Part shown: one piece after another, positions 12,147 through 61,617 of the stretch
How the letters are laid out: the number at the start of each line of letters is the position of its first letter
Position numbering within the stretch: position 1 is the first letter of the stretch
DNA from: an uncultured Verrucomicrobiae bacterium
GTDB lineage: Bacteria > Verrucomicrobiota > Verrucomicrobiia > Chthoniobacterales > JAATET01
DNA length: 64,000 nucleotides
Reading direction: 5' to 3'
NCBI GenBank assembly: GCA_963719495.1
Contig: CAVRCI010000002.1
Span: forward strand, 704,001-768,000
The notes under the pieces: model-generated
Told to the model about the DNA's origin: nothing
The model's input: only the letters and a program-made list of their open reading frames with translations
Database searches by the model: none
Position numbers and translations under genes: made by a program

Positions 12147-12356
12147 GAGTAGAGAAATGGGAAATTTGAAATGCTGAATTAGAAATGGCGAGGCGCTTCG
12201 CGCGATTTGTTTTGGCTTACTTGTTGCCCGTCGTCTTTGTGATGGCTCCGAGAGTGGAGAAATGGAAAATTTGAAATGTTGAATTAGAAATGGCGAGGCG
12301 CTTTGCGCGATCTGTTTTGGCTTACTTGTTGCCCGTCGTCTTTGTGATTGCGCCTA
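12147..12356. repeat. 105-bp imperfect tandem duplication including heptamer repeats and the 3' end of the four-helix-bundle gene
   Basis: 12147-12251 aligns with 12252-12356. Confidence 0.9.
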
Positions 12357-12675: not shown

Positions 12676-12726
12676 CCAAAAATCCGCCCGAAGGGCCTAG
12701 CCATTTCTCATTCCCCATTTCTCATT

Positions 12727-14368
<1,642 letters not shown>

Positions 14369-47468: not shown

Positions 47469-47726
47469 GCCTGCTGCGGCGGCGCGGACGGTCGATCTGA
47501 AAACGCGGAGGCGTTGGGAGGTTCTGAATAAGACAGGATTGACGGGATTTTCAGGATCGAGGAGCTCGTGCGGATTTTGCCTGTTCCCGGCTGAGGACCC
47601 TGAATTTTGCATGGTCAACGGGCCCCTTTCTCCGTAGATCGCCCCCTTATCGAAATGAAGTGTTCCCCGGGTGATTGGTTTTTCAGGTTGGGTTCCCGGG
47701 CTCGAATCGAGTCGACCCGTTAATCC

Positions 47727-48435
47727 ATGGACCCGCATCGGAACCCCAAGCAGAGGGCGCGAGCGGGCATCGACGCCACGCTGATCCAGTCCGGTTGGAC
47801 CGTGCAGAGCCTGACGGAACTCAATCTACACACTTCGCTCGGCGTTGCCGTCCGCGAGATGCAGTCCCAACGCGGCCCCGCCGACTACGGTATCTTCGTT
47901 CAGGGCAAGGCGCTCGGCATCGTCGAGGCGAAAAAGGAAGGCGAGACGCTCTCCCTCGTCGCCGAGCAGTCGGCGCGCTACTCCCATGCCCGCAAATGGA
48001 TCCCGCAGACGTGGGCCGATCCACTGCCCTTCCCGTACGAGTCCACCGGCGTCGAGACCAATTTCCGCAGACTAATATCCGCGACCAGCGCGACCCGGAT
48101 CCCCGCTCGCGTCCCGTCTTTGCCTTCCACCGTCCCGAGTATTTCCTCGAGCTGGTCCAGCGACCCGGCACTCTCCGCGGGCGGCTTCGCCAGCTTCCCG
48201 AGCTGATCATCGCGCCACAGCGCGACTGCCAGATCGACGCCATTCATGGGCTGGAGGCATCCCTTGCCGATAATCGTCCCCGGGCGCTCATCCGGATGGC
48301 GACCGGCTCCGGCCAGACCCTCACCGCAGTCACGCAGGCCTACCGCCTCATCAAATTCGCGACGCCTTCCGCATCGGCCTCACCGCAACGCCGAACAAGG
48401 CCACACTCGGCTTCTTCAATCGCAACCTCGTTATG
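47727..48435 (+). pseudogene. hsdR: Type I restriction HsdR remnant (frameshifted and deleted)
   Basis: GPADY..IVEAKK nuclease motif; frameshift to RDCQIDAI..MATGSGQT; jump to RIGLTATP-like frame; ends at the repeat. Confidence 0.8.
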
Positions 48436-48454
48436 TCGGAGGGCTCAGTCGGGC

Positions 48455-48489
48455 GGTTCTGAACCAATGAACGGACTGACCCCTTTGAC
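48455..48489 (+). repeat. GACTGACCCC-family repeat, left arm (inverted partner at 56082-56116)
   Basis: GGTTCTGAACCAATGAACGGACTGACCCCTTTGAC. Confidence 0.9.
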
Positions 48490-48499
48490 GGGTCCTGAC

Positions 48500-48808
48500 C
48501 CGGGAGCCGTAACAAACCCGCCGACGGTTAGCGGAGATATTGTGAACGTGACAGGTGAGGACGGTCCCACAATCGCGTATGCAACTTGGAAGTTTTATAG
48601 CGTTGTCGAAATCGATTACAAATTCAACCTTTACATGCAATACAAGTTGAAAGGAGTCGAAGGCTCTTCTTGGAAAACTATCGGCAAGGCTCACTGGACA
48701 TGGTTAGGGGGTTGCTACTTATACCATAATCCGGAGCAGCAGCTGCCTTATGGAAATACGAGCAGCACAAGTGGAAATGCGAGTAGTGAATCACCAGTTG
48801 CTCCTTAA
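48500..48808 (+). pseudogene. Headless low-GC C-terminal gene fragment
   Basis: Open frame starts at the repeat with no convincing start; markedly more AT-rich than flanks. Confidence 0.5.
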
Positions 48809-49378: not shown

Positions 49379-49495
49379 TTAGAAGCAGGCGGAAGAGTAG
49401 ACTGGCGGCTTTTTTTGGGGCGTCTCCGAACATTATGGTGTTTGCCCTCCGACAGTGCAATCAGGAATAAGGAATGGGGTCAGTCGAGAATGGCA

Positions 49496-51002
49496 CTAAG
49501 ATAAGGGGGATTTGGGAGGATTTTCGACCCCGGATTTTCGGTGAGGGAGCGGTCCCATTTGGCGGCGGGGCTTGGTCAAGAGGCGATAGTTTTTGGGGCG
49601 GCGTTTTCTGACTCTGGGGTTCGGATCGGTCTGGGCGCAGCGGAACGAGATCGCTGGCGATGGCAGAGAGCATGGCGTCGAGGATGGCGGAGATGGTGCG
49701 GGGTTTAGCGTTGGCCCCACTGGTGGCGTTGGCGAACTGACGGACGGTATCGAGAGTGCCCTTGAAGGAGACGCGATCCAGGTCGAGTTCGTGAATCAGG
49801 GCGGCTTTCTGCATGACGCTGCGGACGAGGTTGGAGGCGATGAAGTGCATGAGGAGTTCGCGCTCGATGAGGGCCGGGGATTTGCAGCGCAAGACGTCCA
49901 TGTTGAGAGCGATCTTGATCTCGCGAAAATGGAGTTCGACGCTCCAGCGGCGGAAGTAGAGGGAGGCGAGATCATCGGCGGGAATGGCCGTCTCGGAGAG
50001 CAGCAGGGTGGTCACCAAGGTGACGGTCTGGGTGCGGAAGCCGGGTTGGGCGATGGTGTAGCGCACGACGCGCACTGGAATATCCGCGGGCCAGAGCGCG
50101 AACTCCTCGGGCGTCATCCCGCGTGGTCGCTGCGCGGGGCGCTTCCAGACAATGTTCACATCGAAATTTGCCGACTTGGGAAGCTGAGCACCAATGGCCT
50201 TGCGGAACCGTTTTTCGGGCAAGCGCATCAACGAGTCCACGCCCAGGGAGAGCAGACCGGCAATAGCCCCGAAGGAACAAAATCCCCGGTCGGTGAGAAC
50301 GAGATCGCCACGATTGAAAATGCTCCAAAGGTTGCGAAAAAGCCGGGTCTCATGGGTGAGACGATCGCCCCAATCCGCCTTGAGAAGAGCTCCGGTGAGA
50401 AGGCAGAAAACGCCAACCAGATTGATTGCGGGAAAGCCACACCCCGGCTTCTGACTGCTGCTCTGCGGCCAACGATCTTGATTGGCTTCGGTGTCGGGCA
50501 TGGAGACACCCGTGCCGTCCACGAGCCGTACCTGGCGACCATGCCAGAGAGCGCCGCTGGGAATATTGGCTTCCATGCGCACGGCCAGATGGGTGTTGAT
50601 TCCTTCCAGTGTCGCCACCGGGAGCTTGGCTCGCGCCTGGCAATAAGCGCTGGCATTGCCACTCATGACCTCGGTCTCTGTAGTGCCAGACGGTTTGGAT
50701 TTTCTGCTCACCAAAGCCATGACCTTGCACACGGCTTCGCGACAGGAACCGTTCGGGGTTTGCACCTGATCCAGGAAGCTCCAGAAGACACGTTCGAGCG
50801 AGAAAATGCGCTTGCGGCTGTGAGCACAGCTGGGCGTTGAGCTAAGTAACTTCCGTGGAATGTAGGAGCCAAAGACGTTGACCAACACCGAGAGCGAACC
50901 GCTCTGCCTGAGCTTGGCAAGGGCCTGCGTCAGGGGTGAGACTGGCGGTCGTCCAAAAAGCCGCGAACTAAAATTTGGGAAAAACGGGTTGAAAGAACGC
51001 AT
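49496..51002 (-). pseudogene. IS4-family transposase with a frameshift near the C-terminus
   Basis: LVDGT, DRGF, YFRRWSVELHFREIK; tail RVRKRRPKNY in another frame after the G4 run at 49616-49619. Confidence 0.8.
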
Positions 51003-51044
51003 CCAATACAAGTATATATACTTAATCGAAGCCGCCAGTGAATT

Positions 51045-51398
51045 ATGCCGAAAACCGCTAAAAAATCCGACCTCACCGCCCGGGAAATCCGTCGACTCGA
51101 AGCACGCTACAGCACCCTGGCCTCGGAGCTGGGAAGCTTCCCCGAATTGAGTCAGGGAAGCGTGATGCCCCAACCTCCCCGGGCTTGGCGGTGGACCCGC
51201 AAAGTTGCCGGAAAAACCGTCACCGTTGGGCTCAGTCCCCTCAAAGCCCAGAGGATGAAACTAGCCATCGCCAACCATCGAAAGCTGGAAAAGAACATTA
51301 CCGAGATGCGCGAGATAACCCAGAAACTCATCTTGAGAACCCCAGATCCCTCCCCGATTCCCAAACGCGAGCCGCCTCCTAAATCCTCCTTAAGTTAG
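51045..51398 (+). CDS. Small basic passenger protein (DUF6788-like, tentative)
   Basis: QGSV..WRWTRKVAGKTVT..AIANHR; lies inside the IS ends. Confidence 0.6.
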   Translation: MPKTAKKSDLTAREIRRLEARYSTLASELGSFPELSQGSVMPQPPRAWRWTRKVAGKTVTVGLSPLKAQRMKLAIANHRKLEKNITEMREITQKLILRTPDPSPIPKREPPPKSSLS

Positions 51399-51417
51399 TG
51401 CCATTCGGGTCAGTCCG

Positions 51418-51683
51418 GAATGGCACTGTTTTAAGCCGATTTTCGGTGAAGAGCGCAAGGCGGTGAGGACGGCTTGGCAGGCCGTCCCGCGCGAGATCAT
51501 TGGCAACCGGGGTCTTTTCGATCAACGCTGGCGGTGTTGGTGGGGTGAGCGCGAAGTTGTAGCGGCGCGTCTGTGACCGCCGCGAACCATCTCGCTGAGT
51601 TTGCGCACCCGAGTCTGACGGCACCGGCGGTCACAGACCGCCGCTACAGCCCTGCCGACGATCCGCTTAAAACAGTGCCATTC
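51418..51683. mobile_element. 266-bp MITE with IS4-type ends
   Basis: Perfect 19-bp IR GAATGGCACTGTTTTAAGC; no transposase. Confidence 0.88.
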
Positions 51684-51694
51684 CGGACTGACCC

Positions 51695-53249
51695 GAATGG
51701 CACTGCTTTAAGCCAGTTTTCGGGGAGAAAGATGGAGGGAGATCCGCTGATTTGGTAGATTAAAGTGTGAGCAGCAACCAACCATTTCTCAGCGGATTCC
51801 CAACTCAAATATGTGGCAGAATGCGGCGGCGTCTGCAAGCGGTCATCGCGGAGCGACGGAGCGCATTGGCAGAGTCATCCATAGCGACCTACGCGCTGCA
51901 GTTTTCCCGCATCCTGCCGGCCGATTTTTTGGAGTCACTCTCGCTCACGCAACGGGTTCGGCAGTATTGCAATGTGGTCGTCTTCTGGGTGTGGCTGGCT
52001 CAGATTTTAGAGGCCAATGCGTCGCTCTCCAAAGCGGTGAGTCTGGTCCAATGCTGGTGCGGCGAGGCGGGTCTGCCAGTTCCCAGTGGGGATACCGGAG
52101 CCTTCAGTCGGGGTCGGGGACGACTCGGAGAGGCGTTTCTGGCCGGGGCGAGCCAACGCGTGCGCACTCATCTGGGAGCCCGGATCAGGCCCGAGGATAC
52201 TTACAAAGGACACGTGGTCAAATCCATCGACGGCAGCTCGTTGACTCTGGATGACACAGCGTCCAATCAGGAGCAATATCCGCAACCCACGAGCCAGAAA
52301 GCGGGTTGCGGCTTCCCGGTCATGGGCATCATGGGCGTGCTCAACCACGCCCATGGCGGATGGGAGGATTTCGTTGAAGGGCTGCAGAGCGCGCACGATG
52401 CACCGATCTTTCACAAGCTCATGCACTGCTTCGAACCCGGGGATTTACTTTGCGGTGATCGCGCTTTCTGCACCTACGAGTTGATGTCCACTCTGGACCA
52501 AAGGCAGGTCCATACGCTCATGCGTTTGCACCAATCCCGGCACCGCGTCCTGAACTGGAGCCGTGGCAAAAAGCTCGGCAAGCACCAACGCCTGGTTACT
52601 TGGAAGAAGCCCGCTAAACGCCCCGTGGGCAGCACCTTGAATGATTTGGAATGGGCGGCACTACCCGAAGAACTCCAAATCCGTCTCATTCGCTTTGAAT
52701 ACAAGGATCGCGCCGGGAGCAAACGCCGCATGGTCCTGGCCACGACCATGACTGACTCCCTTCGATACGACTGGCGCGAACTGGCCGCCATCTACGCCCA
52801 GCGCTGGGACATCGAACTACGTCTGAGGGACGTGAAAACCACCCTCGCCATGGATCACCTGCGCGTCAAAACGCCCGCGACCGCCCGCAAGACTCTCACG
52901 ATGAGTTTGATCGCCTACAACCTTCTCAAGGCCACCAGCCAGCAAGCCGCGCACAGCACCGGGCAGGACCTCCGACTCATGAGTTTCAAAGCCACTCTGG
53001 ACACCATCGTCGCCAACACCGCTCGCTACCTCCGCCGTCAAAAACACGCCCGCCTCATCAAGGAAATCTGGTCCGACACCATCGAAATGATCGCCGCAAA
53101 AATCATCGATCTCCGCCCCGGCAGGCACGAACCTCGTGCCCAGAAGAAGCGACCTAAAAACTTCAGTTATCTCACCGCTCCTCGCGCTCTCTACCAAGAA
53201 ATCCCTCACCGCGGCAAATCCCGATCCTTCGCTTAATGCAGTGCCATTC
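51695..53249 (+). mobile_element. IS4-family element B
   Basis: IRs GAATGGCACTGCTTTAAGC / GCTTAATGCAGTGCCATTC; perfect 11-bp TSD CGGACTGACCC at 51684-51694 and 53250-53260. Confidence 0.93.
51767..53236 (+). CDS. IS4-family transposase
   Basis: SIDGS, DRAF, YAQRWDIELRLRDVK (YREK-like). Confidence 0.9.
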   Translation: MSSNQPFLSGFPTQICGRMRRRLQAVIAERRSALAESSIATYALQFSRILPADFLESLSLTQRVRQYCNVVVFWVWLAQILEANASLSKAVSLVQCWCGEAGLPVPSGDTGAFSRGRGRLGEAFLAGASQRVRTHLGARIRPEDTYKGHVVKSIDGSSLTLDDTASNQEQYPQPTSQKAGCGFPVMGIMGVLNHAHGGWEDFVEGLQSAHDAPIFHKLMHCFEPGDLLCGDRAFCTYELMSTLDQRQVHTLMRLHQSRHRVLNWSRGKKLGKHQRLVTWKKPAKRPVGSTLNDLEWAALPEELQIRLIRFEYKDRAGSKRRMVLATTMTDSLRYDWRELAAIYAQRWDIELRLRDVKTTLAMDHLRVKTPATARKTLTMSLIAYNLLKATSQQAAHSTGQDLRLMSFKATLDTIVANTARYLRRQKHARLIKEIWSDTIEMIAAKIIDLRPGRHEPRAQKKRPKNFSYLTAPRALYQEIPHRGKSRSFA

Positions 53250-53362
53250 CGGACTGACCCCTTTGATGACCCCTTTGACTGACCCCTTTGATGAACCGAC
53301 CCCTTCGATGAACCAATGAACGGACTGACTCCTTCGATGACCCCTTCGACAATGAACGGACT
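53250..53362 (+). repeat. GACCCCTTYGA repeat array, left part
   Basis: About six GACCCCTTYGA-like units plus AATGAACGGACT. Confidence 0.9.
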
Positions 53363-53399
53363 TCTCTGAAAAAAGGGTCGAAGGGCTGTCAAGGGTCTA

Positions 53400-53680
53400 A
53401 TTTAGAGGGTTCTTGGACCGAGTGGGGCATGGGACGCAGAAGAAAGCGCCCAATGGGTGACCATCAGGGCAGGGAAAAGCGCGGGCTCTTACATTAAGGG
53501 AAGGAGCCTGTAAACTTGGGACGATAGCGATGCTGGAATCACACTTCTCTGCGGGGCGGGCACTTCTGGCCCCCATCCATTGTGGCGATCAGATCCCCAG
53601 CCCTCCATCCTGACCCAAGGTGCGCCGACTAAGTGCTAAGACTTAGCGACCAACCAGTCGTTCATTGGAGCGGCTGGGGA
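53400..53680 (-). ncRNA. Predicted bridge/seek RNA downstream of the IS110 recombinase (ends approximate)
   Basis: Segments matching left target, right target and one donor half, around hairpins. Confidence 0.65.
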
Positions 53681-54873
53681 AATTGTTTTCGAGAAGATCG
53701 ACTTTGGCGTCCCTGGCGTTTTTTCGGGGTTTTCATGTTGCCAGGTTTTTCCTTGGCCAAGCCTGGTTTGGACGAGATTTGTTCTTCCGCGTTGCGGCTC
53801 TGGCTTTGAAGTTTTTGGGACTCGGGAAAGTTCGTGTAGGAACGCCCCTGGGTCAAGAGGCTGCAGGTGATGCGGGCCATCCGGCGGGCGGTGGCTAGGA
53901 TGGCGGTGTTGGCTTTCTTGCCGTGAGCGCGTTTGTTTTTGTAGTAGTCGCCGAAGTAGGGCGAGCAGCCAACAGCCACCCAGGCGGCCTCGACGAAGGC
54001 CCAACGCAGCCATTTGTTGCATTGGGGCAGCAGGCGTCCGTGGTAGGTCTTGCCGCCGCTGCTGCTCGTCGCCGGGCAGAGTCCCGCGTAGCCGCAGAGC
54101 TTCTGCGCGGAGGCAAAGCGAGAGATGTCGTCGATCTCGGCGACGACAACCGCGGCCAGGATGGGTCCCATCCCGGGGAGACTGCAGACGTGGGTGAGCT
54201 CGGGGCTTTGGCTCATGAGATCTTTGAGCGCTGCCTCGTCCTGCCGGATGCGAGCGACCAACTCGTTGTGGAGGGCGAGTTGCTGGGTCAGGAGCATGCC
54301 TGCTGGTTCGGCCAACTCGAGCTTCTCCAAGAACCCCAGCCCCTTCTTGCCGAAGAGATCGCTACAGACAGGAAGTTTGAGTTCGTGCTGGCCGCCGAGT
54401 AACCGGTGGATGCGGTTGCGCAGCATCGTGCGTTGGCGCACGAAGAAACAGCGCTGGCGCAGCACGTTCTTGATGTCGCGGGTCTCGCGACTGGGGATGT
54501 GGACGCTCGAAATCAAATTGGCCCGCAACAGATTGGCCAACGCTCGGGCGTCGATCTTATCGGTCTTGATTTGGGCCTCGGCGATGATCCGCGTCTTAAA
54601 CGGGTTGGCCAACACGATGTTCTCGGCGGGCATCACCTGCTCGAGAATCTCGTAGAGCCAGTGCCAGTTCATGCTCGCTTCGAAGACGATCCGGCACCCC
54701 GGCCACCGCTCGACGAGCCGCCCAAAATCTCCGCTGATCGCGTGCTCGATGCGCCCTTGGCCGAGCACCTCGCCGTGGCCATCAACCACGCAATAGACGC
54801 TGTATCGCTTGTGATAATCGATGCCAATGAAGCTCGATTCCGTCGGTAGGCTTTTTGGTTGGGTTTTCATCAC
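53662..54873 (-). CDS. IS110-family DEDD recombinase
   Basis: IGIDYHK, FEAS, KTDKIDA, LPGMG, YAGLCP..SSGG. Confidence 0.95.
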   Translation of the reverse strand: MMKTQPKSLPTESSFIGIDYHKRYSVYCVVDGHGEVLGQGRIEHAISGDFGRLVERWPGCRIVFEASMNWHWLYEILEQVMPAENIVLANPFKTRIIAEAQIKTDKIDARALANLLRANLISSVHIPSRETRDIKNVLRQRCFFVRQRTMLRNRIHRLLGGQHELKLPVCSDLFGKKGLGFLEKLELAEPAGMLLTQQLALHNELVARIRQDEAALKDLMSQSPELTHVCSLPGMGPILAAVVVAEIDDISRFASAQKLCGYAGLCPATSSSGGKTYHGRLLPQCNKWLRWAFVEAAWVAVGCSPYFGDYYKNKRAHGKKANTAILATARRMARITCSLLTQGRSYTNFPESQKLQSQSRNAEEQISSKPGLAKEKPGNMKTPKKRQGRQSRSSRKQFPQPLQ

Positions 54874-54954
54874 CCCAACCTACACCATTCATTTCATCAG
54901 GCTCTCCGGGCCCCACTTCCCAGCAACGCTCTATTCATCAGCCTTTCATGCCGC

Positions 54955-55002
54955 CTGACCCCTTCGAGACCCCTTCGAGACCCCTTCGACGGGCCCTTCG
55001 AC
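54955..55002 (+). repeat. GACCCCTTCGA repeat array, right part
   Basis: (GACCCCTTCGA)x3 plus GGCCCTTCGAC. Confidence 0.9.
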
Positions 55003-55178
55003 AGGAAATGCTCTGCCACGCCTCGCTTCTCACCACGCAGGTTCACACCCGCGTCGTCCCCTCCGATCTCCAGCGCGTCCACAAGTTCACCGCCCCCAGC
55101 GAACGCCGTGGCGTAATCGACGTCCCCACCTTCGAACTCCACGCCTGGCGTGATCGCAAGAACCGTCACCGCTCCTGA
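55002..55178 (+). pseudogene. Tyrosine recombinase C-terminal fragment
   Basis: QEMLCHASLLTTQVHTRV resembles box II LGH..TTQ.YT, with G>C and Y>H. Confidence 0.65.
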
Positions 55179-55215
55179 TCCGGTCTCGCTCCAACTCCTT
55201 CCCAGCCGTAATCTC

Positions 55216-55698
55216 ATGCCCGTGCGCACGCTCCCGCTCTACCTCGACACCTCCGTCATCGGCGGCTACTTCGACGACGAGTTCGAGGAGGCTACCCGCG
55301 AACTCTGGCGGCAGAAAAAAGCCGGGCGCTTCCGGTTTACGACCTCGGCGGTGACCCGGCAGGAAATCGAGGAAGCTCCGGCCGACGTGCGCGAGTTGAT
55401 GGAAGAGACGTTCCCCGACGCCGATCTCCTTCCGCTCACCGCCGAGGCCATCGAGCTGGCCCGCGCCTACCTCGACGCCGCGGTCGTCCCGGAAACCTAC
55501 GCCGACGACGCCCGGCATGTCGCCATCGCGGTCGTTCACGAACTCCATCTGCTCGTTAGCTGGAACTTCCGTCACATGGTCAACGTCCGCCGATCGGATG
55601 CGTTCAACGCCGTGAACCTCTTGCAGGGTTACCCCCCAATCCGTATCGTTAGTCCGTTGGAACTCATCTATGACGACGAAGAAGAACAAACGCTTTGA
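55216..55698 (+). CDS. PIN-domain (VapC-like) protein
   Basis: YLDTSV, DARHVAIA, LVSWNFRH. Confidence 0.88.
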   Translation: MPVRTLPLYLDTSVIGGYFDDEFEEATRELWRQKKAGRFRFTTSAVTRQEIEEAPADVRELMEETFPDADLLPLTAEAIELARAYLDAAVVPETYADDARHVAIAVVHELHLLVSWNFRHMVNVRRSDAFNAVNLLQGYPPIRIVSPLELIYDDEEEQTL

Positions 55699-55840
55699 TG
55701 CTGTCGCCGAATCCCGCAAATGGCGGATCAAAACCGGCGCGATTTTGGCGACCATGACCCCCGAAGAACAGATGGCGTTCCTCAACCGGCGCATCCCCAA
55801 GAACCAAGCCAGGAAACGCCTCGCTTCTGCTTCTTCCTAG
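55670..55840 (+). CDS. Small putative antitoxin, 56 aa
   Basis: MTTKKNKRFDAVAESRKWR.., overlaps the PIN gene end. Confidence 0.6.
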   Translation: MTTKKNKRFDAVAESRKWRIKTGAILATMTPEEQMAFLNRRIPKNQARKRLASASS

Positions 55841-56053: not shown

Positions 56054-56116
56054 GGCCAGTCGGAGGGGTCAGTCCGGGCCAGTCGGAGGGGTCAGTCCGT
56101 GCATTGGTTCAGAACC
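56054..56116 (-). repeat. GACTGACCCC-family repeat, right arm, with a 23-bp tandem duplication
   Basis: (GGCCAGTCGGAGGGGTCAGTCCG)x2 then TGCATTGGTTCAGAACC. Confidence 0.9.
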
Positions 56117-56294: not shown

Positions 56295-57514
56295 CTAGTA
56301 TACTGTAACGCGCTATCTTGCGTATTGAGTCGCGCTCATCGGAGCGGTATGTGGGTGGATGGCAAATCGATATCGCATCACTTTAACCGAGTCCGAACGT
56401 GAGTATTTGAGCGCGCTGGGCCGGACTTCCAAAACCGACGCCAAGCGATGTGTGCATGCTCGAACGCTTTTACTTTGCGACGTTGGCGAGCACGCGCCAG
56501 GTAGAACAGTGTGGAGGGTGGCGGATGTCGCCAGTGCTCTGGGGATCGGCGTTCGCACCGTCGAACACATCAAGGAGCGCTTCGTGGAGGATGGGTTGGA
56601 GGCAGCGCTTGGACGCAAGCCGAGAACCGGTCCTCCGAGGATTACCTTCGATGGAGCCTTTGACGCGAGGGTGACCGCCTTGGCGTGCTCCGATCCTCCC
56701 GATGGACGCGCCCGGTGGACCGTCCGTCTTCTCGCCGACAAAGTCGTGGAACTCAAGATTGCCCCCAGCGTTTCGACGATGACCATTCAGCGGTCTCTAA
56801 AAAAAACGAATTACGCCCTCATCTGAGCAAATATTGGAAGATCCCTCCAGACGGCAGCGCCGCTTTCGTTGCTTGCATGGAGGACGTTCTCGAACTCTAT
56901 CACGCACCCTACGATGCGCTCTTCCCCCTCGTCTGTATGGATGAGTCGAGCAAGCAACTCGTTGGCGAAGTCCACGCGCCCATCGCCAGCGCTCCCGGCA
57001 GGGCGCGGATCGAAGACCACGAATACGTCCGCAACGGCGTGGCCGAAATTTTCCTCGAAGTCGAGCCGCTGGGCGGACGCAGACATCTGGAAATCACCGA
57101 ACGCCGCACCCGCATCCAATGGGCTCAGTTCATTCGCAGCATGCTCGACGAACGCTATCCCCACGCGACCAAGGTGCGCTTGGTCATGGACAACCTCAAT
57201 ACGCACAACATCGCTTCGCTCTACGAAGCCTTCCCTCCCCAGGAAGCTCGCCGACTGGCCCAACGCCTTGAGATCCACTACACCCCAAAACATGGCAGTT
57301 GGCTCAATGTCGCCGAGATCGAGTTCAGTGTCCTTCAGTCCCAATGCCTGAATCGTCGCATTCCTAACATTGAAACGCTGCGCTCGGAAGTCGCGGCTTG
57401 GGAGGCCGCCCGGAACGAAGCCGCCCGCACCACTTCGTGGCGCTTCACCACCGCCGACGCGCGGGTCAAATTGAGACGGTTATATCCGCAGCTTTAGTCG
57501 TTACAGGATACTAG
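56295..57514 (+). mobile_element. IS630-family element
   Basis: CTAGTATACTGTAACG / CGTTACAGGATACTAG ends including CTAG sites. Confidence 0.9.
56359..57497 (+). CDS. IS630 transposase, two ORFs joined by a frameshift at A8 (56799-56806)
   Basis: HTH orfA (RWTVRLLA); DDE orfB (CMDE, MDNLNTH, SWLNVAEIE). Confidence 0.88.
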
Positions 57515-57570
57515 CAGCCTGTCGGACTTAGAGGGACGACAAAAGGAGAGGAAGCTGTCAGCTTGGGGAA

Positions 57571-58105: not shown

Positions 58106-60011
58106 CAGGGCATTTGGCTTGAAGCGCGAGGAAGCTGATAGGTAGGGGAAAAGAGAAATGGCTAGACAAAAGCGCGTCGAAAAGCTGAACTACGGTGGTG
58201 AAAAAGCAGGAGACCAGGAAAGGCGAGGGCATTGAAAGCAAGGCAACGCGATTGGAAGTGAAGGTAGCGCATTCGGCGGGGGACTGGCGCCGAGCGAAAG
58301 AGGCCCTTGGGCGAGAGCATGGGTTGGGAGCTGGGAGCGAGGCGGGAGACCGGCTCTGTCAGTTGGTAATGGAGGAAGGGAAGCTTGCCGGGGTAATGGT
58401 GTGGTGTGCGGCGGCGTGGCATTTGAAGGATCGGGACGAAGCGGTGGGATGGGATGCGGTGACGCGCTCGGAGCGGCTCAAGCTGGTGGTGCAGCTGCGA
58501 CGCTTTCTGGTTTTGGAAGAGGCACGACGGCCGAACCTGGCCAGCCAATGTCTTGGGGCCGGGATGCGGGAACTGGTGGAGCAATGGGAAAAGGCCCACG
58601 GATACCGACCACTTCTGGCCGAAAGCTTCAGCGATCCAGAAAGCCATGCGGGAACGGTTTACAAAGCGACGAACTGGACGCAGGCGGGAACGACGAAGGG
58701 GTTTTCGCAAGACCACACCGACTACTACATCCCCAACGGGAGGCCCAAGAAGCTGTGGCTCAAAGAGCTCGCGCCCAAGGCCTGCGAGTTGATGAGCGCG
58801 CGCGAGTTGCCCGAAGCCAGCAAGGGGGCCTTGGTCGGACGCGGGGGAGCCCGCAGTCCGCTCAAGAACGCCGGACTCAAAAGCCTGCGCGACGCCTTGA
58901 GGGAGGTGCCCGATCCGCGTCACCCCAAAAGCCGCCGCCACCCCCTATCGGCGATGTTGACCCTGATCTCGCTGGGGTTGCTCATGGGAGCGCGCGACGT
59001 GCTCGATATCTGGAGGAAAGTGGCCTGCCTTTCCCAGAGCCAAAGAGAGGTGATCGGCCTGCGGGTGCGCGACAAGCAAAGTAAGCGGCTCAAGATGCCC
59101 GGCTACGATGCGCTCAACGACCTGCTGGCCGCCGTGGAACCCCACGCCTACGCCCATGCGCTGACGGCCTGGTTGCAAGCCAACGCGGGAGTGCTGCCCC
59201 GCAGCCTGGCCCTGGATGGCAAAAGCGTGGGCGATGGACGCTGCGGCATGATCGTGACCCTTTGCCGTCATGAAGACGGGCGTCCGGTGGCCATGATCCC
59301 GGCCAGCGGAAAAAAAGAAGACTGCGAAGTCTCCGAAGCCCGCGCCCTGCTCTCCAATCCCGGGGTGGAACTGGTCAACGCGCTGGTCACGGCCGACCCG
59401 CTTCACAACAAAGAGGCCACCGCGCGAGTCATCCTGGAAAAGGGAGGCGACTACCTCATCGGCACAAAAGCAAATACCTCCAAACGATTGGAGGCAGCCA
59501 CCCGCGCCCTGGAGGGCTCCCCTTTTTTGACCTGAGCTGCGAAGGCGATCACGGGCGCATCGACTCCCGCAAAGCCGCCGTCCAACCCATCTCCCCAGTC
59601 TCCGCCGGGCTGCCCGGTGCCCGCTCCGCCATCACCGTGCAGCGCGACTGGCAGGAAAAGAAAGACCCCCACCAAACGCCCAAGAGCCATACCCGTATCT
59701 TCCTTTCCAGCCTGAAACCGGAAGAAAAATCCCGTTCCACCCGCGCCGTTCGCGAGCACTGGAGCATCGAGAACCGCAATCACCACAAACGCGACGCCTC
59801 CGCCTGGCAAGAAGATCGGCACCGACATCGCAGACCAAAAGCTGCCCTCAACCTCGCCCTCACCCGCAACGTCCTGCTCGCCCTCATTCCCTTTGAGCAC
59901 GGGCAACCCCTCGCTCACTTCTTCGAACTCTACCACCGACACCCAGCAAAAGCTCTCAACCTTATCCTTCACGCTCGCCCCGCCCTATGACCCTTCCAGC
60001 CAAACGCCCTG
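58106..60011 (+). mobile_element. ISAs1-family IS, copy 2 (complete, 1906 bp)
   Basis: IRs CAGGGCATTTGGCTTGAAG / CTTCCAGCCAAACGCCCTG; 10-bp TSD GCCAAGCTCC at 58096-58105 and 60012-60021. Confidence 0.95.
58195..59990 (+). CDS. DUF4338/DruA-like-ISAs1 transposase fusion, -1 frameshift at CCCCTTTTTT (59519-59528)
   Basis: ORF1 58195-59535; -1 frame continues DHGRIDSR..VREHWSIENRNHHKRD..ED. Confidence 0.88.
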
Positions 60012-60779: not shown

Positions 60780-61133
60780 AGAGTCCGCCATCACGCCACC
60801 ATCCGTGCTGGCAGAGAGTCCAAAACGCTCTTCACCGGGTTCCCTCGCTCCAATCCCATCTTTTTCGTCATCGCCGCCGGCCAATCCAACCTCGTTTCAA
60901 GAAACTTCCACGCCAACGCTCTGGCTCCAAGTCCGACAGGCTGCTAGGCCGCAATACATCGAAGGGTCAGATCAAAACGCCACTGTTTTGCGGGTTTTCG
61001 GCAGGAATGTGCAAGATTCCATTCGCTTTGAACTCCGGCCCTTTCGAGGAATACCCTCCGTGCATGCTGCTCTGGATGCTCTGACTCATGATCTCGAACC
61101 TTGCTCAACAGAGTAAAAAACTGCCAACGGTGT

Positions 61134-61152
61134 GCTTAAAGCAGTGCCATTC
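61134..61152. mobile_element. Orphan IS4-type end next to GGGTCAG
   Basis: GCTTAAAGCAGTGCCATTC then GGGTCAGG; exact reverse complement of element B's left IR. Confidence 0.75.
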
Positions 61153-61617
61153 GGGTCAGGTCATTCCTTTGACACATCGGTTGGACAAACGGGTCTGGAA
61201 CAGGGTTTTCGGAAGGGTCGCCCGATGTGCCATTGTGATTTGCCAATCCCGTTTCCTTTTCCTCGCGGGCCGGATTCACGGGATTGGAAGGATTGAGTTC
61301 CTGTTTTTTCTGGATGAATGCCCGTTCTCCCAAGGGGTAAGGGAGTCATTTCCCTGACTTCCTCATCATCCTGTCAATCCCGTAAATCCTGTCTCGAATT
61401 CCTCTCGAGATTAAAGGGTTGGGGAAGCGCGCTGGGCGCTCCGTGGTAGCGGCTCGGTGCGTTCGGATGACGATCGGACTCGTGTGAGTGACTGCGGGGT
61501 CTATCGCGGAGTATCGTGGGTTTTCCTGTTGCTGGACGGAACTGGTGACCGGAAGTGGGCACCCGGCGGCGCGGCTGCCCTACCCTGGACGGGGTGCGGC
61601 TTCGCCGCTGAATTTTT

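Follow-up and report, generated by a model that had tools for sequence, protein, structure and literature searches.

A clade of IS4-subgroup insertion sequences in Verrucomicrobiota shares a degenerate target preference that matches the terminal-repeat tip of TIRtrons

We analyzed a 64,000-nt stretch of a verrucomicrobial genome (G000:C2:704001-768000, hereafter the window), in which an IS4-family insertion sequence (IS), element A, a non-coding miniature inverted-repeat transposable element (MITE) and a second IS4-family insertion sequence, element B, stand in a row. All three terminate in GAATGGCACT-N4-TAAG, and 11-bp spacers lie between them (Table 1). To judge from the aligned sequences, A and B are members of a single large clade of subgroup IS4, with ends GAATGGCRCT..TAAG and an 11-bp duplication, and the motif next to their ends is the invariant tip GGGGTCAG of the terminal inverted repeats (TIRs) of TIRtrons, elements of a Y1/HUH transposase (TIRYT, TnpA-Y1 subclass 2.1). 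The target preference is clade-wide but degenerate.

The initial annotation had proposed sequence-specific insertion, after noticing that all seven IS4-type ends of the window adjoin an 11-mer bearing GGGTCAG/CTGACCC. This was confirmed 11-mer by 11-mer: the ends abut GGGTCAGTCGA, GGGTCAGTCCG, CGGACTGACCC, CGGACTGACCC and, at 61153-63, GGGTCAGGTCA. The perfect duplication described for B was also found (11/11), and only there; the flanks of A agree at 9/11 positions, and its left-flank TIR type differs from its right-flank type. The supposed orphan end at 61152 does adjoin the motif but proved to be the right end of a decayed 178-bp MITE with a 10/11 duplication.

The same preference was evident across the genome, where a scan returned 67 end-like matches, six discarded as chance and 61 scored. 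The flank starts exactly with GGGTCAG at 35 of the 61 ends and matches GGGTCAGTCCG in full at 19; 41 match the 11-mer at 8/11 positions or more, a level reached by 0.36% of random 11-mers. Every one of the 12 ends belonging to copies of A or B starts with GGGTCAG, degenerate sites are also used by MITEs and a third IS4 element, and B is found in both orientations relative to the target (contigs C2 versus C7). Scanning metagenomes for the end pattern yielded at least 130 loci with 144 ends, 136 of which had enough flank. Among the matches listed, to which all metagenomic counts refer, 101 of these 136 ends match GGGTCAG in register at 5/7 positions or more, 68 at no fewer than 6/7 and 26 at all seven, against a background at shifted positions of 2.7%, 0.5% and 0.08%; counting distinct 11-mers, 84 of 116 reach 5/7. 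In their logo, G|GGG(T/A)CAG-N4| is preceded by an arm rich in A and followed by one rich in T. Within the duplication, positions 1-7 are informative and 8-11 nearly free, apart from a weak C excess at 9-10.

Closer relatives gave a similar picture. Ends were found at 45 of 59 verrucomicrobial loci, and 49 of 66 flanks match at 6/7 or more, with false ends and register shifts still included; in the sister clade (cyanobacteria, proteobacteria and locus L025), which has the same ends, only 1 of 9 flanks does. The flanks of homologous copies were the check that the initial annotation had suggested, with a majority lacking the motif counting against its proposal. They did not refute it, and sequence-specific insertion is well supported by the genomic and metagenomic counts. 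We ruled out a guide, whether DNA or RNA, within the IS4 elements, since neither GGGTCAG nor GGGACAG occurs in A, in B or in either of the two MITEs.

CGGACTGACCC occurs 79 times in the genome where Markov models expect 2-9, so its abundance is not due to chance. It forms the end of a longer repeat, TTCTGAACCAATG(A/C)ACGGACTGACCCC. Repeats of family R1 lie on both sides of a 332-aa Y1/HUH gene, pointing outward and 25/26 identical, and the other Y1 genes of the genome have repeats of their own, ending in CTGACCCC or CCGACCCC. Six long Y1 proteins carry the subclass 2.1 motifs NH[YF]H and Y[IV]HLNP. The Y1 proteins have a long C-terminal tail, and none of the three scanned matched a Pfam model for the helix-turn-helix (HTH) domain that TIRtron transposases would be expected to carry at the C terminus. 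We examined 29 TIRYT loci (one of 30 was left out) and found a tip on both sides in 22; all read GGGGTCAG and diverge beyond it, and the repeat pairs are at least 18/26 identical at 20 of the 29. This information profile, GGGGTCAG followed by divergence, is that of the IS4 logo. At four loci (L009, L037, L209 and L253), IS4 ends lie inside the TIR, 59-75 bp from the TIRYT gene. A related Y1 gene is present in 134 of 301 genomes of the order.

A matrix derived solely from the metagenomic flanks ranks TIR tips highest in the genome: they make up 17 of 17 sites scoring at least 16 bits and 45 of the 54 scoring at least 14. It expects 262 tips to receive 48-53% of insertions; a hand count gives TIR-type 11-mers at about 33 of the 61 genomic ends. 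Since the predicted share is close to the observed one, sequence readout is sufficient to describe the pattern. Insertions could be reconstructed for 19 elements with both flanks usable: seven are in tips and 12 outside any TIR. Open reading frames (ORFs) of at least 300 codons contain 6 of the 12 off-tip insertions and none of the seven tip insertions, versus 75% of random positions; some copies outside tips interrupt long ORFs. Tips are thus fairly safe places for insertion, but targeting is not strict. The “safe harbour” of the initial annotation is only partly borne out, with about half of the ends at tips.

These observations bear on two rival explanations. That the TIRYT protein, or a structure that it makes (a nicked or single-stranded end), recruits the IS4 transposase, the motif being a by-product, is hard to reconcile with a sequence-only model that yields the observed share, or with the 12 insertions outside TIRs, nine of which match the core in register at 5/7 or more and all at 4/7 or more. 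Six of 26 IS4-bearing genomes have no TIRYT match with our query. We consider recruitment improbable, even though TIRYT is present in 20 of the 26 IS4-clade genomes versus 113 of 274 others, a tally that includes G172 (Fisher p 0.0007; related genomes are not independent), and tips are sites of frequent local rearrangement. To the same degree we doubt that the bias of the transposase is limited to a weak GGG-N5-CCC-like preference and that the strong TIR association arose from selection purging other insertions. Some purging is likely, given the distribution of tip and off-tip insertions over long ORFs, and the C excess at positions 9-10 would agree with such a bias; selection, however, cannot dictate where in the duplication an asymmetric 7-base motif lies, yet the motif keeps to positions 1-7, outside tips and within ORFs too.

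The transposases of A and B both score above the cut-off of NF033592 (NCBIfam IS4) and are 31% identical to each other. The DDE residues of B are D155, D231 and E350, with Y343-R346-E350-K357 conserved across the alignment, and A carries the YFRRWSVELHFREIK signature. The D(60-110)D(100-150)E spacing and the Y(2)R(3)E(6)K signature of subgroup IS4 are both present, all four ends fit the subgroup pattern -AATR--------WTW, and the 11-bp duplication lies within its range (10-13 bp); from family membership, we expect cut-and-paste chemistry. Subgroup members have a single ORF and measure 1400-1650 bp, which fits B at 1555 bp, whereas A reaches 1919 bp because of a DUF6788 passenger. The DUF6788 ORF accompanies long clade members (~1.85-1.9 kb) but not B, and occurs at 13 loci in other genomes, mostly in long elements. 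It was rejected as a targeting factor, as B and other short elements without it keep the target. The named relatives of transposase B are from Verrucomicrobiota, and the nearest named element among those compared is ISAcma16 (29.8% to B). By sequence, B has no relative among solved structures (best E 0.1), and no alignment column cleanly divides the motif-bearing clade from its 8-row sister clade; we propose no specificity residue.

In a quick, midpoint-rooted IQ-TREE run, a clade of 58 rows (SH-aLRT 99) with an unresolved base contained both A and B, in separate subclades, and the motif was found across its branches. Inheritance of the target preference is simpler than convergence because the intervening branches have the same ends and target, and it is the most likely history. 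The initial annotation had instead inferred that two divergent DDE transposases converged on the motif, which we regard as very improbable: A and B are indeed little alike and sit in different subclades of an unresolved base, and the sister clade mostly lacks the motif, but most subclades of the 58-row clade with ends found, including those outside A and B, share both target and ends.

The initial annotation had also observed that an IS110-family element, encoding a DEDD recombinase, uses the same core. This element lies ~100 bp rightward of B, in CGGA|CT|GACCCC of a further repeat copy. Indeed, it joins at GGGTC|AG in 5/5 full genome copies and in 6/6 relatives with a visible left end; the relatives are 45-68% identical, with a match in 7 of 401 genomes. 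About 300 nt of non-coding DNA lies downstream of the gene versus ~80 nt upstream, a trait of the IS1111 group, but the sub-terminal inverted repeats are 5 bp long (TGAAA/TTTCA; 8 bp in L185) rather than the 11-13 bp of that group. The downstream region, in which the relatives have a conserved guide-like GGGTCAG segment, contains CTTGGGTCAG at 9/9 loci. At most of them GACT-like bases come before it, and the AGAGAAG that comes after it matches the donor end. In the stem that encloses CTTGGGTCAG, 14 of 27 predicted pairs covary. The predicted guide segments that match the target are conserved, with one apparent covariation in the predicted RNA (L183: target AGCCCG, guide CGGGCT). The element probably works like IS1111, although we do not file it in that group. 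The IS110 clade reached the tip independently of the IS4 clade, so that the convergence is between one IS4 clade and one IS110 clade. At G000:C14:123433-123452, an IS1182-like end (CAGCCTGTCGGACT) is joined via a shared CGGACT to GACCC and a MITE end, possibly by recombination at the CT core.

Each duplication had been suggested to regenerate the target, and several loci bear this out. At C4:309737-311611, a MITE duplicated GGGTCAGTCGA, and the right copy later took in an IS110 element; the elements of L013 are cleanly stacked, with 11-bp spacers in direct orientation; and at L036 an IS4 element entered an IS110 junction. The proposed stacking by duplication is therefore sound as to regeneration but incomplete for the window, where the MITE flanks are inverted, so that deletion or recombination was also needed. 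The 77 end pairs comprise 48 direct duplications (at least 10/11), 15 direct hybrids, eight inverted with tips outward, none inverted inward and six others. Outward inverted flanks are consistent with deletion of the interior of a TIRtron, and the window MITE has such flanks. IS4 elements with inverted flanks were seen at window 51418-51683, at G000:C6:142796-143170 and at L019, L023, L211, L213, L175 and L116/L117.

We consider the following explanation, taken as a whole, probable. The IS4-clade transposase would read the target DNA directly, as an A-rich arm, G|GGG(T/A)CAG-N4| and a T-rich arm, the 11 bases between the bars being duplicated. Tips would be the best sites in the genome because this profile coincides with the invariant GGGGTCAG tip. 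The duplicated 11-mer would retain the 7-base core and stay open to further insertion, MITEs would be mobilised by the same enzymes, and the IS110 clade would arrive at the tip separately, guided by an RNA encoded downstream of the IS110 gene. The stack may go back to a unit bounded by R1 TIRs that lost its interior through a deletion beside MITE copies or between them; the right tip would have received B and the left tip A, with A's outer flank exchanged later.

Several points weigh against this explanation. The data consist entirely of insertions that survived, and selection thereby sharpens the motif. The metagenomic loci were defined by their end pattern, with transposases unchecked, and 35 of the 136 ends match at 4/7 or fewer; L006, L020, L193 and L204 are clade members with poor target matches. 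The insertions that trained the matrix may themselves be in TIRs, and its fit leaves room for help from TIRYT. The tree has a midpoint root and an unresolved base. For the IS110 element, a single-sequence fold of the region is no better than shuffles (z -0.35), and a right-hand donor guide was not identified in the region downstream of the gene. No contig from four public DNA runs covers the whole stack, and neither an empty site nor an IS110 circle junction was found there, which proves nothing; since no public contig examined spans it, the exact order of the stack rests on this assembly.

A bolder version, which we put forward tentatively and think rather unlikely, casts both clades, the IS4 one as phylum-wide, as dedicated TIRtron parasites: the IS4 transposase would have evolved to read exactly the 8-base tip that TIRYT cannot change, possibly helped by tip-bound TIRYT, and would routinely delete the TIRtron interior. 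If true, this would amount to a three-way conflict over one 8-mer among HUH, DDE and RNA-guided DEDD enzymes, and to a one-protein DDE transposase with ~8-base target choice.

Table 1 Features of the window that belong to the stack and its repeats.
Feature	Position	Strand	Remarks
Unoccupied TIRtron terminal repeat, family R1, TTCTGAACCAATGAACGGACTGACCCC	48457..48483	+	repeat also on both sides of the Y1 gene G000:C11:169331-170329
Left flank of A, tip G-GGGTCAGTCGA facing left	49476..49487	+	11-mer recurs at G000:C4:309737 and in L021
Element A, 1919-bp IS4-subgroup IS, terminal inverted repeats 16/18	49488..51406	-	
DUF6788 passenger ORF within A	51045..51398	+	divergent from transposase
Spacer GGGTCAGTCCG (R1 tip core), common to A and MITE	51407..51417	+	
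266-bp non-coding MITE, ends of the IS4 clade	51418..51683	.	its two flanks mutually inverted
Left copy of B's duplication, CGGACTGACCC, common to MITE and B	51684..51694	-	
Element B, 1555-bp IS4-subgroup IS	51695..53249	+	489-aa transposase 51767-53236
Right copy of B's duplication (53250-60, CGGACTGACCC) and last C of TIR tip	53250..53261	+	
Nested tandem TIR-tip copies and short flank	53261..53362	+	units GACCCCTTTGA / GACCCCTTCGA
IS110-family element with downstream non-coding region, at CT core (53361-62, 54955-56) of a tip copy	53363..54956	-	transposase 53662-54873
Predicted guide (bridge/seek) RNA region	53544..53660	-	CGACT 53656-60 and GGGTCAG 53610-16 match the two target strands; CAGAGAAG 53544-51 matches donor end
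Unoccupied R1 terminal repeat with one nested duplicate	56061..56115	-	
Decayed 178-bp MITE (60975-61152), 10/11 duplication GGGTCAG(A/G)TCA in TGTCAA-type TIR	60964..61163	.	

The transposase ORF of A was called at 49461-51173 (- strand), with a probable ATG at 51002. The window copy has one extra base near 49616, and its frame overruns the IS end; this base is absent from the copies of A at C13 and C14 (1918 bp) and from contigs of runs X1 and X3. The 266-bp MITE has seven further full-length copies at 93-96% identity.

TIRtron tips also carry nested tandem duplications on their outer side, each made of a variable piece of TIR ending in CCCC and a short flank, mostly of 4-5 bases. By a strict test, these are present at 39 of 108 first-in-cluster tips of the genome; examples are at window 53261-53362 and 54957-55000, G000:C1:166286-166416, C11:37437-37660 and C9:55236-55430. 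They suggest a fixed cut just outside the tip. At C7:43441, the duplicated flank is an IS4 end, so the duplication process went on after IS4 insertion. In the text available to us, published TIRtron descriptions do not mention such outer-side duplications. At window 47675-48808, a ResIII restriction-subunit fragment is joined to unrelated sequence across the R1 repeat at 48457-48483. Y1/HUH domains also lie in frame within three long ORFs (G000:C10:1252-4539, C14:100569-103346 and C13:378001-381496) that, on reading their translations, resemble leucyl-tRNA synthetase, RecG and alanyl-tRNA synthetase.

Most repeats detected across the entire window were of codon type. Further features include an ISAs1-like element at 58106-59883, whose first ORF fuses a DruA/Mom-like domain to DDE_Tnp_1_assoc and which interrupts an IS1182-like element; an inverted copy of it, 99% identical, at 1-1778, cut by the window start; an IS630-like element at 56296-57515 (HTH ORF and DDE_3 ORF, with an A-run frameshift site) adjoining an IS1182-like end; a PIN-domain ORF with a short downstream ORF at 55150-55820, toxin-antitoxin-like but below the Pfam cut-off; and a 105-bp tandem pair with an inverted partner (12147-12356 and 12678-12733) of AATGGGAAAT-type repeats.

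TIRtrons are widespread and almost unstudied. A tip that is the preferred target of both an IS4 and an IS110 clade would explain why these genomes have recurrent IS pile-ups and hot spots of rearrangement. The logo is precise enough for a plain mating-out or in vitro assay, and a DDE transposase that is compact and prefers a 7-8-base site could be useful as a semi-targeted integration tool.

The general principle is already known: IS4 and IS110 elements have been seen on one repeat, and the end of another element has been seen as a target. The TIRtron tip as target, together with a clade-wide logo, appears undescribed; a search of openly accessible article text found no published report of TIRtron tips as IS targets. 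IS4321/IS5075 reportedly target the terminal repeats of Tn21 and would thus resemble our elements in using another element's terminal repeat. IS231A, of the IS4 family, has the consensus GGG-N5-CCC, an 11-bp duplication and a hot spot in the ends of Tn4430. It shares with our clade an 11-bp duplication starting with GGG and insertion into another element's end, but it belongs to another subgroup (CAT ends) and has a symmetric consensus, where here one half dominates.

TIRtrons were described as Y1 genes flanked by TIRs with GGGGWSAS, the TIRs also occurring as doublets and clusters (Di Nocera 2013, PMC3733652), and NH[YF]H and Y[IV]HLNP as motifs of TnpA-Y1 subclass 2.1 (Quentin 2018, PMC6006769). 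Both the Y1 motifs and the GGGGWSAS repeats recur here. The available text of these two papers does not report IS targeting of TIRs, and that of PMC5581495 contains nothing on a TIRtron-tip target. The IS110 element resembles the IS1111/IS110 seekRNA elements, in which a downstream non-coding region has short matches to both target strands (Siddiquee 2024, PMC11187229), in the position of this region and in placing the top-strand complement first; it differs in its sub-terminal repeats of only 5-8 bp and in its target, a TIRtron tip.

A closer parallel is offered by elements that target repetitive extragenic palindromic sequences (REPs): ISRm22 (IS4) and ISRm19 (IS110) are both in S. meliloti REPs, and ISPpu9/10, ISPa11 and IS621 are also REP-targeting (Tobes and Pareja 2006, PMC1525189). 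As here, IS4 and IS110 elements meet on the same class of host repeat. There, all copies are in palindromic REPs, with a 6-bp repeat for ISRm22, and type 1 targeting places all copies at one position of the REP; here the target is a non-palindromic TIRtron tip with an 11-bp duplication, only about half of the ends are at tips, and 12 of 19 reconstructed sites lie elsewhere. For subgroup IS4, the survey of the family gives ends -AATR--------WTW, a 10-13-bp duplication and, for some members, a “spectacular apparent insertion specificity” in the target arms (De Palmenaer, Siguier and Mahillon 2008, PMC2266710). Its supplement text has no GAATGGC or ISAcma entry, while its pictured ends and targets could hold this logo. 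Our elements share the ends, duplication length, DDE spacing and YREK signature of that subgroup, but their specificity, as compared with what is described there, lies inside the duplicated 11-mer, is asymmetric (GGGWCAG at positions 1-7) and equals the tip of another element.

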